From assembly GCA_016182295.1 (NCBI GenBank), contig JACOXP010000008.1, forward strand, positions 1 to 47,663: a stretch of 47,663 nucleotides of DNA, read 5' to 3'. Numbering within the stretch: the first letter of the stretch is position 1; each line of letters starts with the position of its first letter. A program made the position numbers and the translations under genes. Of this stretch, positions 1 to 47,663 are shown piece after piece. The notes under the pieces are model-generated. The model was given only the letters and a program-made list of their open reading frames with translations, did no database searches and had not been told where the DNA came from. The DNA is from Candidatus Harrisonbacteria bacterium. GTDB taxonomy: Bacteria > Patescibacteriota > Minisyncoccia > UBA6257 > WO2-44-18.

Positions 1-22
1 CCCCCATTTCTGCACGATCCAT
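1..22 (-). CDS. 5' end (7 codons, MDRAEMG...) of an unidentified CDS running off the left edge
   Basis: ATG at 22-20 on the minus strand. It is preceded by GGAGG (complement of 28-32) at 5-nt spacing and by a consensus promoter at 57-85. The product cannot be named from 7 codons. Confidence 0.35.
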
Positions 23-56
23 AGTAGCCTCCATTTCTAGCGATGTTCTAGAGAAC

Positions 57-85
57 AGTATAGCCTAAATTGATGAAGATGTCAA
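57..85 (-). promoter_or_regulatory. sigma70-type promoter TTGACA-17nt-TATACT for the left-edge gene
   Basis: The minus strand reads TTGACA (85-80), a 17-nt spacer, then TATACT (62-57), about 25 nt upstream of the GGAGG/ATG. Confidence 0.5.
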
Positions 86-124
86 GGAAATTTCCATGAC
101 AAAATAGTTTATAGGAAAAGTAAT

Positions 125-180
125 AAAAGTGTCACATGACGCAGGGATAAAAAAGAGCCCGACAATTAAGCTTGTCGAGC
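125..180 (-). repeat. Copy 0 of the dispersed hairpin + T-run + CATGAC element (other copies at 46051, 46501, 46914, 47567)
   Basis: Plus strand: AAAAGTGTCACATGACGCAGGGATAAAAAAGAGCCCGAC, then a 9-bp-stem hairpin (157-165 / 172-180). It shares AAAAGTGTCA...ATAAAAAA(G)AGCCCGAC with the copy at 46914. On the minus strand it is a hairpin plus T-run immediately after the stop of the 166-513 ORF. Confidence 0.6.
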
Positions 181-513
181 CCATGATTTTAGTGAGGCCA
201 AGAATTCCTCGATCGCACTGTTATTGTAGCTTTCAAGAGGAAACACCGGTTTACCCCGCTGGATAGCTCGCTCACGATCTCGTTTGGCACCGTTTGAATG
301 TTTCCATCCTGGCAGTAGAACAAATGCTTCGCAAGAGAGATCATAGATAGCGTCGTCCAGAGCGTGATAGTAAGCTTCTGGTGCTTGAGCTAATCGTTCA
401 AATCGAGCTGTGTGGCTATGAGGCGCAAAGAAAGAAAATGTTTCTACTAACGACGAGAAGTTAATTGGCGAGCCTGTTAATTTCGGGTAAAATATAGATA
501 TTATATGTTGAAT
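166..513 (-). pseudogene. DUF4406-like (nucleoside 2-deoxyribosyltransferase-like) reading frame lacking a canonical start codon
   Basis: A 115-codon open frame missing from the ORF track because it has no ATG/GTG/TTG near its 5' end. The translation ..IISIFYPKLTGSPINFSS..FAPHSH..YYHALDDAIYDLSCEAFVLLPGWKHSNGAKRDRERAIQRGKPVF.. matches my memory of the DUF4406 pattern (PMTG...N..F, LLPGW..S.GA..E...A...G.PV). The frame runs into the ileS start region. Stop TAA at 168-166. Confidence 0.4.
465..493 (+). promoter_or_regulatory. Candidate ileS promoter (TTGGCG-17nt-TAAAAT)
   Basis: TTGGCG at 465-470, a 17-nt spacer, TAAAAT at 488-493. The ATG is at 505 with no Shine-Dalgarno sequence, which implies a very short leader. 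Confidence 0.4.
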
Positions 514-45125: not shown

Positions 45126-45605
45126 ATGGAAAATTTAAATTTAGAAAACGAGGAAGAAAAAAAATTAGAAACCGATCAGGGATTCGAGCCCGATGTTGAA
45201 TTAGTCAAATCCGACGGCTCGGCTTTGAAAACCAAAAAACACGACGTCGAAGAAGATTTTTTTGACGACACCGAAGGCCAGCTTATGGTTGATCTTTATC
45301 AAACTCCGGATGAAATAATTTTGGAAACACCGGTAGCGGGAGTGAAGCCGGAGGATCTGGACATCGCCATTACTAATGAATCAGTAACCATTAAGGGAAA
45401 AAGAGAAAAAGAACGGCGCGTGAAAGACGAAGATTATTTTTACCAAGAATGTTATTGGGGCCGTTTTTCCAGATCGATTGTTTTGCCGCAGGAAGTTGAC
45501 GCCGAAAAAGCCGAAGCCGCCATTAAAGCTGGCGTGCTGACTATCAAATTGCCCAAACTCAATCGTCAAAGAACCAAAAAAATCAGGATCCGTTACGAAG
45601 AATAA
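45126..45605 (+). CDS. Hsp20/alpha-crystallin small heat-shock protein
   Basis: 159 aa. Alpha-crystallin core DLYQTPDEIILETPVAGVKPEDLDI...GVLTIKLPK. Confidence 0.85.
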   Translation: MENLNLENEEEKKLETDQGFEPDVELVKSDGSALKTKKHDVEEDFFDDTEGQLMVDLYQTPDEIILETPVAGVKPEDLDIAITNESVTIKGKREKERRVKDEDYFYQECYWGRFSRSIVLPQEVDAEKAEAAIKAGVLTIKLPKLNRQRTKKIRIRYEE

Positions 45606-45630
45606 AAAATCCCGATTTGTGAAATCGGGA
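45603..45630 (-). terminator. Terminator of the first small minus-strand gene; abuts the hsp20 stop
   Basis: The minus strand reads TCCCGATTT-CAC-AAATCGGGA followed by TTTTTTATT. Confidence 0.65.
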
Positions 45631-45641
45631 AGCATAGCAGT

Positions 45642-45902
45642 TTAATCACCGCAATGCTTTTCAACTACTGCCTTAATAACGGGGTAATCTTCCGGCTTGT
45701 ACGACGCGGGCACACTGTAATGATAAGTGTTTTTTTTCGGATGATAGGCCAAATCCATAATTGCCAAACCGCGCCAGGCTAGTTCCGTATTGATCTCGGT
45801 TTTTATCATCCTCAGCCTTCTTTCTAACTCAGTTCGTTCCGAGATTTCCATGTCTGGGGTTAGGTTAAAAGATTGTACGATTCTGTGTTCCACTACGGTC
45901 AT
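45642..45902 (-). CDS. Hypothetical small protein (86 aa)
   Basis: ATG 45902 with AAGGAAA 7 nt upstream; the track's GTG 45992 lacks a Shine-Dalgarno sequence. No recognisable motif. Confidence 0.5.
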   Translation of the reverse strand: MTVVEHRIVQSFNLTPDMEISERTELERRLRMIKTEINTELAWRGLAIMDLAYHPKKNTYHYSVPASYKPEDYPVIKAVVEKHCGD

Positions 45903-46050
45903 AGACGTTTCCTTAATGGAAGAATCAAAATATGCTATTGCCAAGGTAGCAAATCCCCGCTTTCGCGTAAAGCTACGGCGGGCAAAGCCCACGGTTGGTT
46001 ATTGAAAAAGTAGAAGCGCTGTGCCCGTCCGTAGCTCGAAGAGCGAAGGA

Positions 46051-46096
46051 GGGTCATGGGAAATAAGGATAAAAAATAGCTAGCAATTGCTAGCTA
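46051..46096 (-). repeat. Copy 1 of the hairpin + T-run + CCCATGAC element
   Basis: Plus strand: GGGTCATGGGAAATAAGGATAAAAAA, then the perfect palindrome TAGCTAGCAATTGCTAGCTA, which overlaps the stop of the 46094-46426 gene. Confidence 0.65.
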
Positions 46097-46426
46097 CGAG
46101 ATGACTTTGACTGGCTCAACTTCAACCCAGTGATAATCAAGAACAGGTGTTGACGGAGGGGTTTTGTGGAGATGTTTACGGAAGTGATGCAACTGAATTT
46201 TTGGCCGTTCTTTGGCGGTAAAAAGAAACATACCCTGAAAAATAAATTTGCTTGGGTGTGCTAGTACGTAATTAAAAGCTTTTTCCAATGCTCCCCGTAA
46301 ATTTCCGGCTTCAACAAGCGGCATTTCCTCCGAGGCCAAATCTAAATAAGAATCGTAACTCTCGCCATCGTACTGGGGTTCTGTCCACTTCAAGTTATAA
46401 AAACGATGACTAGCTTTGAAAATCAT
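46094..46426 (-). CDS. Hypothetical small protein (110 aa)
   Basis: ATG 46426 with GGGGAG 8 nt upstream. The track's ATG 46507 lies inside the conserved repeat. No recognisable motif. Confidence 0.5.
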   Translation of the reverse strand: MIFKASHRFYNLKWTEPQYDGESYDSYLDLASEEMPLVEAGNLRGALEKAFNYVLAHPSKFIFQGMFLFTAKERPKIQLHHFRKHLHKTPPSTPVLDYHWVEVEPVKVIS

Positions 46427-46500
46427 TATTTTACTCCCCTCTGTAAAGGTTCTATTAACAGAATAACTAATCCCTGTGGGATAATCAACAAAGAATAGAA

Positions 46501-46545
46501 GTGTCATGGGTCATGAGGAATAGAAAAGAGCCGCGTTTGCGGCTC
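46501..46545 (-). repeat. Copy 2 of the hairpin + T-run + CCCATGAC element
   Basis: Plus strand: GTGTCATGGGTCATGAGGAATAGAAAA, then the hairpin GAGCCGC-GTTT-GCGGCTC, 12 nt after the stop of the 46557-46841 gene. Confidence 0.6.
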
Positions 46546-46556
46546 GAGCAAGGAGA

Positions 46557-46841
46557 TTATTGGCCGTAGCGACCGGTACCCGTTAGCCATTCAAGGTCAT
46601 CGCGAAGTTTGGCTTCATCTGCTTCTTTCTTGAACTGATCGTTGAATTGCTTGATTTTCTTCTTTGAGACCGGAGGATGAGTGGATGCGTAATTTCTCCG
46701 AAGCTCCTTGGCAGTTGCATCGGATAGATCGTTTACGATGGCATACATTGCATGATCACCGCCTGCGTCGCGATGCTGATTATAGTGTCCTTGCAAGAAA
46801 TTAAGATTCTTCAATTTCGCACAGTGTTGACATTTTGCCAT
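46557..46841 (-). CDS. Hypothetical small protein (94 aa), Cys/His-rich N-terminus
   Basis: GGAGGT lies 6 nt upstream of the ATG. The protein starts MAKCQHCAKLKNLNFLQGHYNQH. I recognise no family. Confidence 0.5.
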   Translation of the reverse strand: MAKCQHCAKLKNLNFLQGHYNQHRDAGGDHAMYAIVNDLSDATAKELRRNYASTHPPVSKKKIKQFNDQFKKEADEAKLRDDLEWLTGTGRYGQ

Positions 46842-46913
46842 GATATACCTCCAGTTGGTTGAAACGATCTATAGAAAAATTAACAGATCCGTGTGTATGG
46901 GTCAATAAGCAAC

Positions 46914-46969
46914 AAAAGTGTCATGGGAAATAAGAATAAAAAAAGCCCGACCCATCAAGAATCGGACTT
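46914..46969 (-). repeat. Copy 3 of the hairpin + T-run + CCCATGAC element
   Basis: Plus strand: AAAAGTGTCATGGGAAATAAGAATAAAAAAAGCCCGA-CCCATCAAGAA-TCGGACT. The flanks are identical to copy 0 at 125-163. Confidence 0.65.
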
Positions 46970-47055
46970 GGCGAAAAAATTATTTTTGGTTTTTCGTTCC
47001 GCATGAAATTTTTCTGGAGCTTGCGATGATAAATCCCTAGTGTTATAATTAAAAA

Positions 47056-47298
47056 ATGGTAAAAGTTACTTTGCCGGAAACTGAATATAAGCAGCTAAAG
47101 CGTCAGGCAGACGCCTATAAAAAAATGGCCACCAAATTATTTGAATTGGCCATTAAAGACCCCGTTGAAAATGTAGTTGAAGATTTTCGTAGAACCGATT
47201 TGTATACACAGGAATTTTTGAAAGATTTGGAATCTGGGCTGCAAAAATCTTCGTATATCAGAAATTATGGAAATAAAACCCCTGCGAAGCGATCTTAA
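47056..47298 (+). CDS. Putative antitoxin of a type II TA pair
   Basis: 80 aa. It overlaps the downstream RelE-like gene by 32 nt. TGTTATAAT sits 6 nt upstream of the ATG. The family is not recognised, so the call rests on context. Confidence 0.5.
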   Translation: MVKVTLPETEYKQLKRQADAYKKMATKLFELAIKDPVENVVEDFRRTDLYTQEFLKDLESGLQKSSYIRNYGNKTPAKRS

Positions 47299-47518
47299 AG
47301 CGTTTCTGCTTCGCCGCGGTTTAAAACAAAAGTGGGGGAAAGCTGAACAGTTCTTTAAACGAAGTATTCGCCACCCCTCGTTAAATGTAGAGTTAATGGA
47401 ACCGAAATGGCGGGGCATTTATTCCTTCCGAATAGATAAAAAATATCGAGCATTATTTTTTATTTCAGAAAACGTAGCAGAAGTGTTTCAAATTACAAAG
47501 CATTATCGGAAAAGTTAG
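47267..47518 (+). CDS. RelE/ParE-superfamily toxin (YoeB/RelE-like)
   Basis: 83 aa. ...PSLNVELMEPKWRGIYSFRIDKKYRALFFISENVAEVFQITKHY fits the RelE-fold C-terminal pattern (G.yS.RI...yR..f.......i..I..HY). Confidence 0.6.
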   Translation: MEIKPLRSDLKAFLLRRGLKQKWGKAEQFFKRSIRHPSLNVELMEPKWRGIYSFRIDKKYRALFFISENVAEVFQITKHYRKS

Positions 47519-47566
47519 ATTAGAAAAGCAGAATCCCAGCTTAATGGAAGCGGGAAAAAATATAAG

Positions 47567-47618
47567 AGATGTCATGGGGGATAAAAATAAAAAGGAGCGC
47601 CCCTTATTGAGACGCTCG
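47567..47618 (-). repeat. Copy 4 of the hairpin + T-run + CCCATGAC element
   Basis: Plus strand: GAGATGTCATGGGGGATAAAAATAAAAAG, then the hairpin GAGCG-CCCCTTATTGAGA-CGCTC. It probably terminates a minus-strand gene that ends near the right edge. Confidence 0.55.
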
Positions 47619-47663
47619 CGCACCAGATGTTTTACTTGGCGAGTGCATTTGCAAGTACTGTAA

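Follow-up and report, generated by a model that had tools for sequence, protein, structure and literature searches.

Small-gene cassettes bounded by secA-tail relics in a Candidatus Harrisonbacteria genome

The window (the whole 47,663-nt stretch of Candidatus Harrisonbacteria DNA that was analyzed) ends in a cassette-like array of small genes, and the conserved core of its boundary element is the last codons of secA (K-C-H-G-x-stop) with the stop codon, an A-run and a terminator hairpin. Judged from their sequence, the relics at these boundaries are displaced, decayed copies of the secA 3' end. We think it probable that recombination at this core stacked up relic-bounded cassettes with a mimic of the secA tail, as tandem accretion at the secA 3' end. 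In our best reading, the array process is a variant of the tandem accretion seen at the 3' ends of genes, working like the PeSL modules of phages; we found in the literature no account of the secA SEC-C tail as a target or of such gene capture.

Layout of the array

The initial annotation described units of 410–650 nt, each with one small ORF or a toxin-antitoxin (TA) pair; the units measure 450, 413, and 653 nt and hold minus-strand genes of 86, 110, and 94 aa and a plus-strand TA-like pair (Table 1). The small-gene units are self-contained, with separators consisting of a hairpin, a T-run, and TTATTTCCCATGACAC. The TA-like pair is indeed present, but its assignment to the RelE type stands less firmly, since the toxin ORF bears only a weak resemblance to RelE/HigB/YoeB (Pfam E 0.0015, which misses the cut-off; PDB YoeB E 0.15). 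The array flanks are cellular core genes (ileS, hsp20, argS, and recO), and no array gene matches a PHROG family.

Table 1. Array features by position in the window
Feature	Positions	Strand	Basis or reading
hsp20	45126..45605	+	ORF; left array boundary
Hairpin between A-run and T-run	45610..45630		Terminator-like site; sequence
Cassette gene 1, 86 aa	45642..45902	-	ORF; no Pfam or PHROG family
secA-tail relic 1, most decayed	45988..46066	+	P-T-V-G-Y-*-K-K-*-K ... G-H-G-K-stop
Terminator hairpin of cassette gene 2	46076..46097	-	Predicted; on the plus strand, A-run and hairpin past relic 1 stop
Cassette gene 2, 110 aa	46094..46426	-	ORF; no Pfam or PHROG family
secA-tail relic 2	46469..46516	+	N-P-C-G-I-I-N-K-E-*-K-C-H-G-S-stop
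Terminator hairpin of cassette gene 3	46528..46545	-	Predicted
Cassette gene 3, 94 aa	46557..46841	-	ORF; no Pfam or PHROG family
secA-tail relic 3	46874..46933	+	E-K-L-T-D-P-C-V-W-V-N-K-Q-Q-K-C-H-G-K-stop
Gene-less module, 81 nt	46933..47013		A-run, hairpin 46943-46969, AT-rich tail
Toxin-antitoxin-like cassette	47021..47518	+	Same direction as relics
TA promoter-like site TTGCGA N17 TATAAT	47021-47049	+	Promoter scan
Antitoxin-like ORF, 80 aa	47056-47298	+	ORF
RelE/YoeB-like ORF (weakly), 83 aa	47267-47518	+	ORF
secA-tail relic 4, best preserved	47531..47584	+	E-S-Q-L-N-G-S-G-K-K-Y-K-R-C-H-G-G-stop
Terminator hairpin	47595-47617	-	Predicted
Last codons of unassembled cassette gene 'X'	47632-47663	-	...TVLANALAK*; sequence
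Decayed relic 5 with A-run and hairpin	124..182	+	K-C-H-M-T-Q-G-stop at 127-150
Promoter region and first codons of unassembled gene 'Y'	1..101	-	MDRAEMG..., start at 22

A 33-nt element profile run against the whole 632-kb genome recovers four strong copies (46047-46076, 46496-46526, 46914-46943, and 47564-47593; E 1e-3 to 2e-4, or 1e-5 to 1e-6 with model R1) at the four places first reported. Model R1 also finds the fifth copy that had been noticed near the window start, in decayed form (124-154); its flanks, described as identical to those of copy 3, are near-identical (AAAAGTGTCA; ATAAAAAAAGCCCGAC vs ATAAAAAAGAGCCCGAC). The remaining matches all lie at two other contig ends (C15 36615-37950 and C17 70-1212), and every element copy of the genome falls at one of four contig ends, each a branch point of the k=99 assembly graph. 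Core-gene terminators gave no match to the 33-nt profile anywhere in the genome, and the cassette genes are accessory (two have homologs in 2/301 and 4/301 genomes of the order), so the motif is not one that occurs only at ordinary core-gene terminators. Cassette gene 3 has a homolog in only 1 of 300 other genomes of the order.

For all four strong copies, a minus-strand terminator-like hairpin followed by a T-run is predicted immediately upstream (46097-46076, 46545-46528, 46969-46943, and 47617-47595), as the initial annotation had proposed. Flanked by A/T runs, the hairpin resembles a two-way terminator that closes the cassette gene antisense to the relic, and that at 45610..45630 could terminate both hsp20 (plus strand) and the 86-aa cassette gene (minus strand). 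In copies 2 and 3, TTGAYY N17 TAnnnT boxes stand 12 nt past the core. The next cassette gene has its -35/-10-like boxes either on the antisense of the relic's upstream codons or within an adjoining, conserved 140-nt long form of the element (discussed below). The element is thus predicted to be a composite of stem-loop terminator and sigma-70-like promoter, repeated among small genes that belong to no family. As each unit has predicted -35/-10-like boxes, a Shine-Dalgarno sequence, and a terminator-like hairpin of its own, each appears self-expressed and insulated. A generic promoter scan returned the TA promoter only, and the cassette promoters were read from the sequence.

Correspondence of the core with the secA 3' end

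The core, first taken for a new motif, proves to be the secA tail by its reading frame, a profile of secA ends, and a SEC-C match. All co-oriented copies in the genome (11/11) read C/G-H-G/R-x-stop in one frame, on the strand opposite to the cassette genes, and past C-H-G-x-stop the plus strand runs into an A-run and then a hairpin. Real secA 3' ends have the same plan, a SEC-C zinc finger ending ...GSGKKYKRCHGx* and then a terminator. Relics extend over up to about 20 SEC-C codons ending in K-C-H-G-x-stop, followed by the A-run and hairpin. Hairpin sequences vary because each relic retains a former secA-type terminator of its own.

A profile built from the real secA ends of nine other genomes only ranks relics 4 (E=2.3e-5) and 3 (E=0.015) first and second across the 632 kb, and array copies make up 9 of its 11 best matches. 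Relic 4 is also matched by Pfam SEC-C (E=0.002) and is 26/27 and 34/39 identical to the real secA ends of relatives G010 and G009, respectively; relic 2 aligns with the G010 secA end over 53 nt, the final 15 of them identical. Conversely, model R1 matches the true secA terminus in G009 and G010 and a site directly behind secA in G006.

The reported similarity of copies 2 and 3 through a TTGA.. -35-like box is real, but it is the antisense of upstream SEC-C codons (D-P-C-...-K-C-H-G). The antisense of relic 2 contains the boxes of cassette gene 2 (TTGATT N17 TATTCT), and that of relic 3 contains TTGACC N17 TAATTT upstream of cassette gene 3. Relic 1 is interrupted by a 35-nt GC-rich insert (46017-46051), and a homologous split relic is found at C15 37091-37148. 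The relic 5 hairpin is predicted to terminate a start-less DUF4406-like ORF (166-513, minus strand). Next to it, gene Y has a -35 box TTGACA (85-80) and a -10 box TATACT (62-57), and a 20-bp palindrome, GTCAAGGAAATTTCCATGAC (81-100), composed of two inverted secA-core-like halves, overlaps this -35 box.

Arrays in relatives and the long form

No secA was found on the 19 contigs of this genome, and its arrays are headed by hsp20 or argS, where secA would be expected. As neither array stands beside secA, we infer serial insertion at secA from relatives, four of which (L034, G006, G003 on its contig C25, and G616) have an array headed by an intact secA. In L034, secA is followed by three antisense cassettes with short and long relic forms, and comparison of this layout with the window places hsp20 in the position of the real secA. 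The same layout directly follows the real secA in G006. In G003, the order behind secA is relic, relic, ParDE pair, relic, the ParDE pair matching the TA cassette of the window in position and orientation, while G005 has three cargo-less relics behind secA. The closed genome G616 contains six loci, one array behind secA and five ectopic, and a 74-aa cassette found behind secA in L034 recurs in an ectopic array of G616. Relic decay in the window rises toward hsp20, the reverse of a simple "newest next to target" order.

Scanning related bins with the motif model, as had been suggested, gave element matches in 49 of 401 genomes of the class. Named MAGs have 20 stretches with a 21-nt inner segment of the element; all are Patescibacteria save one labelled only "bacterium".

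The long form is conserved over ~140 nt across families and contains two inverted secA-tail mimics, whose arms are 85% complementary (34–53% when slid). These properties, together with a mini form with only 24 nt between the arms, an IS30 copy inserted into one element, and dispersal of multiple copies at six loci in the closed genome, would also suit a non-autonomous MITE-like element that transposes into terminator regions, its terminal inverted repeats merely resembling the secA tail and the small genes being bystanders. We regard this as decidedly unlikely: no target-site duplications are visible at the ends inspected, copies are confined to small accessory gene arrays and co-oriented within each, short forms consist of a single arm together with a terminator and a stop codon in frame with secA, the element has no associated transposase, and its 21-nt inner segment has 0 matches in IMG/VR viral contigs.

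The spacing of the motif recalls instead a purely regulatory module, an operator or UP-like site through which one regulator would serve all small genes, with the secA resemblance and the assembly breaks as side effects of repetition. The distance between a motif copy and the -35-like box is fixed (12 nt in short forms; 7–10 nt, in inverted orientation, in long forms), the palindrome of core-like halves overlaps the gene Y -35 box, and ArsR- or TrpR-like regulators adjoin two arrays. An operator, however, needs neither an in-frame stop after C-H-G-x (11/11 copies) nor identity with real secA ends; the relics decay freely beyond the core, no compensatory changes were seen between the long-form arms, and the same relics stand cargo-less behind secA in G005, which makes this explanation highly improbable. 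The candidate operator sequence under such a reading is TTTCCCATGACA.

Recombination at the core and comparison with known systems

Both window ends are k=99 assembly-graph branch nodes, with positions 1-99 identical to the end of contig C15 and the final 99 nt identical to the start of contig C17. Junctions were mapped from assembly-graph ends, where strain mixing is possible; on this basis, the flanks of shared blocks switch at 47564/47565 in the relic 4 region, which is 5 nt ahead of TGT; at 134/135, following TGTCA; and at the stop codon position 46933, in each case within about 10–20 nt of the TGTCATGG core. The C15 homology with the relic 5 region stops at 134/135, inside TGTCA, and the gene-less module (46933..47013) is 98.8% identical to C15 36546-36626, the homology beginning at the relic 3 stop codon. 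The G003 array and C17 share a 78-aa gene together with its own terminator hairpin, the homology ending at the relic. Element copies are exchange points between otherwise unrelated sequences. Both functions first suggested for the boundary, recombination site and terminator-promoter module, find support: it coincides with recombination junctions and carries terminator and promoter signals.

Under the accretion model, small circular or incoming DNA units carrying a secA-tail mimic would recombine at or beside the core AAR-TGT-CAT-GG, their partner being the real secA tail or a relic already in place. Each insertion would bring a new stop and terminator and displace the old one outward, and the relics could then offer secondary sites for docking or exchange; this would account for arrays distant from secA and for blocks common to several arrays. 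The agent could be the host's one tyrosine (Xer-type) recombinase, an integrase acting in trans, or short-homology recombination.

This genome contains one tyrosine recombinase gene (PF00589), on contig C1, as do 19 of 21 other array-bearing genomes, never on an array contig; none was found in the other two. No serine recombinase was found in genome G000, none of the arrays examined contains or adjoins a recombinase gene, and no integrase lies at either end of arrays on contiguous contigs of relatives. Over C15, rc(C11), and C17 the GC skew does not change sign, and neither array coincides with a switch.

Tandem accretion at a 3' end is known from the integrase-less CIMEs together with ICESt1/ICESt3 at the fda 3' end in Streptococcus thermophilus, and from SCC composite islands at the rlmH (orfX) 3' end in staphylococci. 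As in those systems, direct repeats of a conserved protein gene's 3' end delimit successive units, insertion would restore the gene end and displace the old one, and units occur without a recombinase. The arrays described here differ in that the target is the secA SEC-C tail and that the units are single tiny genes (0.4–0.65 kb) with their own promoter and a common two-way terminator, both predicted. Many ectopic loci have such arrays as well, many units come with a conserved module containing two inverted target mimics, and no cognate integrase was found anywhere in these genomes.

In T4-type phages, PeSLs combine a terminator stem-loop with a sigma-70-type promoter between the small ORFan genes of hyperplastic regions, and they mediate indels and mini-circles (Arbiol et al. 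2010; Comeau et al. 2014; PMC2839356, PMC4122927). The composite element here, likewise placed between small ORFan genes, similarly serves as a point of exchange between unrelated genes, but it lies on a cellular (Patescibacteria) chromosome and has its origin in the coding end of an essential gene of the host, and its activity is predicted whereas that of PeSLs was shown experimentally. Shuffling of the PeSL kind could operate without a site-specific enzyme or dedicated attachment site, the relics being terminator-promoter modules whose 30–60 nt of similarity lets general recombination (RecA, possibly after DNA uptake) swap, insert, and delete genes. Stem-loop and promoter between small ORFan genes in variable regions fit the PeSL definition (PMC2839356, PMC4122927), no recombinase lies near any array, relic similarity reaches up to 20 codons, and junctions spread over about 20 nt (47564/65, 134/135, 46933) with no one fixed base. 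Yet similarity between neighboring relics is low and gapped beyond an 8–11-nt core, which is short for RecA-type exchange, and general recombination leaves unexplained why the module copies the secA end, why arrays in several genomes begin exactly at the real secA stop, and why the inverted pair of tail mimics is conserved. We therefore view it as possible but rather doubtful.

The array also invites comparison with attC sites, CALIN arrays, and the folded attP of CTX-type IMEX that exploit host Xer (reviewed in PMC5357621). Shared with these are arrays of small cassettes including TA modules, no recombinase inside cassettes, and, between cassettes, an imperfect inverted repeat of about 60–150 nt both arms of which imitate the docking site; as for IMEX, the sole tyrosine recombinase of the genome is of housekeeping type. 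There are, however, no IntI and no R''/R' cores here, and the arms show no compensatory changes. Integron cassettes are mostly promoterless and depend on a common Pc promoter, whereas those described here appear self-expressed, and the arrays are not at a GC-skew switch, unlike the IMEX dif site near the replication terminus.

The initial annotation likened the array to sedentary integrons while noting neither canonical attC cores nor an integrase in the window, and both absences held. A search of both strands of 45601-47663 for inverted cores (R'' RYYYAAC and R' GTTRRRY, 40–130 nt apart) found 0 pairs against 0.5 expected in shuffles, and the only PF00589 gene of the genome lies outside the window; what stands is a cassette-like array with a conserved boundary element that is not a canonical integron. 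A classical sedentary array with its integrase beyond the contig end would account for the single small ORF per unit, the embedded TA module, and the imperfect inverted repeats between ORFs. The missing core pairs, the cassettes' own promoter-like boxes and terminators, the placement of the single tyrosine recombinase on another contig (here and in 19/21 genomes, with none found in 2/21), and the lack of an integrase at either array end in relatives' contiguous contigs render it exceedingly improbable.

An integrase-less, integron-like form of gene capture is unlikely, though less so. Mobile one-gene units would carry the 140-nt module with its two inverted secA-tail mimics, which, when single-stranded or extruded, would fold to reproduce the docking site, in the manner of integron attC sites and CTX-phage attP, and the single Xer-type recombinase would insert the unit at the secA tail or an earlier relic. 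As the docking site would be the essential, ultra-conserved zinc-finger codons of secA, it would work phylum-wide.

To our knowledge, ultra-small bacteria of the candidate phyla have very few recognizable mobile elements, and their acquisition of accessory genes is largely obscure. The accumulation of relic-bounded one-gene cassettes in many Patescibacteria genomes, with no recombinase gene nearby, points to a gene-capture process. The repeats also break metagenome assemblies: both contig ends are such breaks and secA is lost from the bin, so annotators will miss these arrays and may miscall relic frames as genes. This locus and the matching loci across the class present a recurrent, simple architecture for keeping and exchanging tiny genes and TA modules; its anchor is the set of codons most conserved in an essential gene, and no recombinase is present in cis. 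A site-specific process would mean a new attachment site and perhaps a new role for a housekeeping recombinase; a homology-driven one would be the first cellular counterpart of phage PeSL shuffling known to us.

The boundary element and the secA terminus

Directly after hsp20, the window, which is one entire contig (C11) of a 632-kb genome in 19 contigs, carries four units; read on the minus strand, each closes with a hairpin followed by a T-run and (A/T)TTCTTATTTCCCATGACAC. A scan of the whole genome with a 33-nt profile of this element confirmed the four boundaries described in the initial annotation and also its fifth copy, which is decayed, close to the left end (see the table), and ORF calling bore out its list of ORFs. 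All further matches lie at two contig ends, the right one of C15 and the left one of C17, and the element is absent from core-gene terminators elsewhere in the 632 kb. The hairpins beside the copies are predicted to be intrinsic-terminator-like sites on the minus strand; an Rfam search with the elements matched no family.

Coordinates of the profile matches at the relics and of associated features in the window, two other contigs of the same genome (C15, C17), and stretches of relatives' DNA (L013, L034)
Feature	Source	Position	Strand	Details
Relic 1	Window	46047-76	+	...G-H-G-K-*
Relic 2	Window	46496-526	+	N-P-C-G-I-I-N-K-E-*-K-C-H-G-S-*
Relic 3	Window	46914-43	+	E-K-L-T-D-P-C-V-W-V-N-K-Q-Q-K-C-H-G-K-*
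Relic 4	Window	47564-93	+	E-S-Q-L-N-G-S-G-K-K-Y-K-R-C-H-G-G-*
Relic 5	Window	124-154		Decayed
Insert in relic 1	Window	46017-46051		35 nt, GC-rich, hairpin-forming; between K and C/G codons
Homologous insert	C15	37106-37140		Same place in a C15 relic
81-nt module	Window	46933-47013		A-run, hairpin, AT-rich tail; no ORF
Second copy of module	C15	36546-36626		98.8% identity
Short form	C17	579
Gene Y palindrome	Window	81-100		20 bp, GTCAAGGAAATTTCCATGAC; overlaps -35 box of gene Y
Expanded palindrome	C15	37975-38005		Perfect 14+3+14
DUF4406-like frame	Window	166-513	-	No ATG, GTG or TTG start; ATA-TCT-ATA-TTT (I-S-I-F) at N-terminal consensus position
ParE-type toxin, second TA cassette	C15	36633-36842	-	Stops ...GDWRVVYEVL*, where relic K-C-Y-E-R-* begins
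DUF1653 gene	C17	940-1212		secA direction; ends inside relic, last codons ...GDLRGNKQ* are relic codons
23-residue peptide	L034	6870-6941	-	Hydrophobic; own TATAAT promoter
IS30-family transposase	L013	9540-10535		With inverted ends; between inverted core and -35 box of long form; L013 is on G003 contig C1

The conserved core seen in the initial annotation is not a new motif. Judged by sequence comparison, it is SecA's C-terminal zinc finger (SEC-C), and hairpin, T-run, and core together are a former secA terminus viewed from the opposite strand. This identification is based on several observations. The plus strand of every copy holds one frame, C-H-G-x-stop, with the stop at the fifth codon in all 11 co-oriented copies of the genome, those of C15 and C17 included, and Pfam SEC-C matches the 21-codon frame of relic 4. 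A nucleotide profile was built solely from the 3' ends of genuine secA genes in nine other genomes; across the 632-kb genome, it ranks relic 4 first (E=2.3e-5) and relic 3 second (E=0.015), and array copies make up nine of its 11 best matches. Relic 4 is identical to the secA ends of two relatives at 26/27 (G010) and 34/39 (G009) positions. Conversely, a model built from the window's element matches the true secA terminus in these same relatives, or a site directly behind secA in a third (G006). Finally, real secA ends in the family of the window genome have the relic layout of stop codon, A-run, and hairpin. The similarity between copies that the initial annotation followed into a -35-like box is present, and is simply the upstream codons, D-P-C...K-C-H-G, read in antisense. 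Inspection also led us to reject the core as the -35 box of its own promoter, as spacing to -10-like hexamers is inconsistent among copies.

No SecA motor domain (PF07517) was found in the bin (19 contigs, 91% complete). The gene is probably on a short contig lost from the bin, plausibly because its 3' end belongs to the same repeat family as the relics.

Junctions and forms of the relics

The last 99 nt are exactly common to the plus strand of the window and the minus strand of C17, and likewise to the minus strand of the window and the plus strand of C15; both shared ends are k=99 assembly-graph branch nodes. At the right end, relic 4 shows no relation to the C17 relic as far as 47564, and from 47565 (AGAGATGTCATGG...) the two match exactly via the hairpin into gene X, an unassembled cassette gene for which a metagenome scan gave no match. 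At the left end, homology to C15 runs from gene Y, an unassembled gene starting there, through its promoter and ends at 134/135, inside TGTCA. The third case is the duplicated 81-nt module, in which homology begins at the relic stop codon; the module may represent a cassette that holds no gene, or encode a small RNA. Homology thus breaks independently three times (47564/47565, 134/135, and 46933) within ~20 nt of the core, and shared blocks switch partners there.

GC skew has one sign along C15, the reverse complement of C11, and C17, which fits this contig order; most simply, the genome would carry two arrays separated by ~45 kb, with at least the Y-start and X-end blocks in common. As no skew switch occurs, we rejected the idea that the arrays lie at dif or the terminus of replication. 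Four more contig-end pairs (C1/C9, C2/C19, C8/C12, and C9/C12) have exactly 99 terminal bases in common, and the secA-relic profile matched none of them, so further repeat families break this assembly. Each half of the gene Y palindrome resembles the secA core (TGTCATGGAAA); the palindrome might serve as an operator, or consist of two inverted cores that abut.

The relics occur in two forms. In the short form (copies 2 and 3, one C17 copy, and copies in the relatives G003 and G616), an antisense TTGAYY-N17-TAnnnT lies 12 nt after the core. The long form, ~140 nt and conserved across families, consists of a sense relic in reverse complement (P-C-G-W-L-L-K-K-Q-K-C-H-G), a conserved stretch that is not secA (...TTATTTTAAGCC...), a second, inverted and stop-less tail mimic (W-S-N-Y-R-K-C-H-G), and an A-run with the predicted promoter of the next gene. 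Its arms are 85% complementary, versus 34–53% when slid against each other, so the inverted pair of tail mimics is real. Nothing in the sequences points to selection for base pairing of the arms. With no compensatory changes in 19 arm pairs, and with only one of three folded long forms beating its shuffles (z = -3.8, -0.8, and -1.3), we rejected a structure-selected RNA; the same results neither favour nor oppose a folded DNA site.

Besides the insert in relic 1 and its C15 homolog, GC-rich mini-hairpins are found at three different positions among aligned long-form copies (L013, L028, and L059). These appear to be a family of very small insertions in their own right.

Arrays and cargo in relatives

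In relatives, the arrays begin at secA itself. In L034, behind an 841-aa secA ending in ...GSGKKYKRCHGK*, come a hairpin and a convergent ORF of 23 codons, then a relic (K-Y-K-K-C-H-G-A-*) with a hairpin and a convergent 74-aa gene, and then a long form ending in P-C-G-W-L-L-K-K-Q-K-C-H-G-A-* and a convergent 73-aa gene. Given that the first of these units encodes only a 23-residue peptide, cassettes can be extremely small. In G006, the secA stop is immediately followed by a relic, and two more units are present; G005 has three cargo-less relics behind secA. On contig C25 of G003, secA is followed by two relics, a ParDE pair oriented like secA, and one more relic, an order that parallels the TA pair and relic 4 of the window.

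Other arrays are ectopic: five copies between unrelated core genes on G003 contig C1, one of them interrupted by IS30, which cuts a cassette gene off from some of its upstream region; an array flanked by an arsR-like gene and sufS (L022); and one in a Yanofskybacteria MAG (L028). In the closed genome G616, an array lies immediately behind secA, with five further loci around the chromosome. In a class-level survey, 49 of 401 genomes had at least one match and 14 at least two. A 21-nt inner segment was found in 20 stretches of named MAGs (~1 expected by chance), all from Patescibacteria except one labelled just "bacterium", and had no match in viral contigs.

The cassette genes are accessory, as homologs of two of them are rare in the order: the 94-aa gene has homologs in 2 and the C17 78-aa gene in 4 of 301 genomes. 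The latter recurs in the G003 array with 67% identity and the same terminator hairpin, homology stopping at the relic, and the 74-aa gene of L034 is also part of an ectopic G616 array. Two cassette genes have distant homologs (in G002, G008, and G200) that lack relic flanks; cassette genes therefore exist outside the cassette system too. The three small window proteins belong to no Pfam or PHROG family, and a phage origin of the cargo was rejected, as none of 10 cassette proteins matched PHROG. The ORFs of the TA pair, annotated initially as RelE-type, hold up, and the toxin is only weakly RelE/HigB/YoeB-like; an exact look-up of this protein in public assemblies returned no record.

Relics also touch coding regions. 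Based on its stop at the relic start and on a G003 homolog behind secA that is ~22 residues longer, the C15 ParE-type toxin gene appears truncated by recombination at a relic. The start of the C17 DUF1653 gene is preceded by a short relic (R-C-H-R-K-*), itself directly after the argS stop; relics thus provide 5' and 3' ends of sense-direction genes as well. The DUF4406-like frame may be a pseudogene or use a non-canonical start.

A possible mode of array growth

The unit boundaries are secA-end relics with terminator-like hairpins and promoter-like boxes. The array is not an integron, because attC cores are absent from it, IntI is absent from the genome, and each cassette is driven by its own predicted promoter. 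The initial annotation had likewise seen neither canonical attC cores nor an integrase; our attC core search was negative, and the sole tyrosine recombinase is on another contig. The inverted pair of target mimics recalls both integron attC sites and the attP of CTX-type elements, which is folded and uses the host Xer (PMC5357621), in resemblance only. Relic arrays have the same footprint as CIME/SCC-type tandem accretion at a gene 3' end, but differ in their one-gene units, ectopic arrays, and inverted-mimic module, and in that no cognate integrase was found. Full-text literature searches turned up no paper that treats the 3' end of secA as a site of insertion.

No recombinase gene lies beside any array examined; one tyrosine recombinase is encoded elsewhere in the window genome and in 19 of 21 other array-bearing genomes, with none found in two. 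This absence, like the scatter of the junctions, would be accounted for by the main rival explanation, homologous exchange as in the promoter-early stem-loop (PeSL) modules of T4-type phages (PMC2839356, PMC4122927), which work like the relics. However, such exchange leaves unexplained both the copying of secA by the module and the start of arrays at the secA stop, and relics, unlike PeSL modules, are found in a cellular genome and derive from a host gene end. We instead propose recombination between the secA tail, or a relic, and units that bear a mimic of this tail. Every insertion would supply a new stop and terminator and displace the old one, and the relics so formed may then serve as secondary sites.
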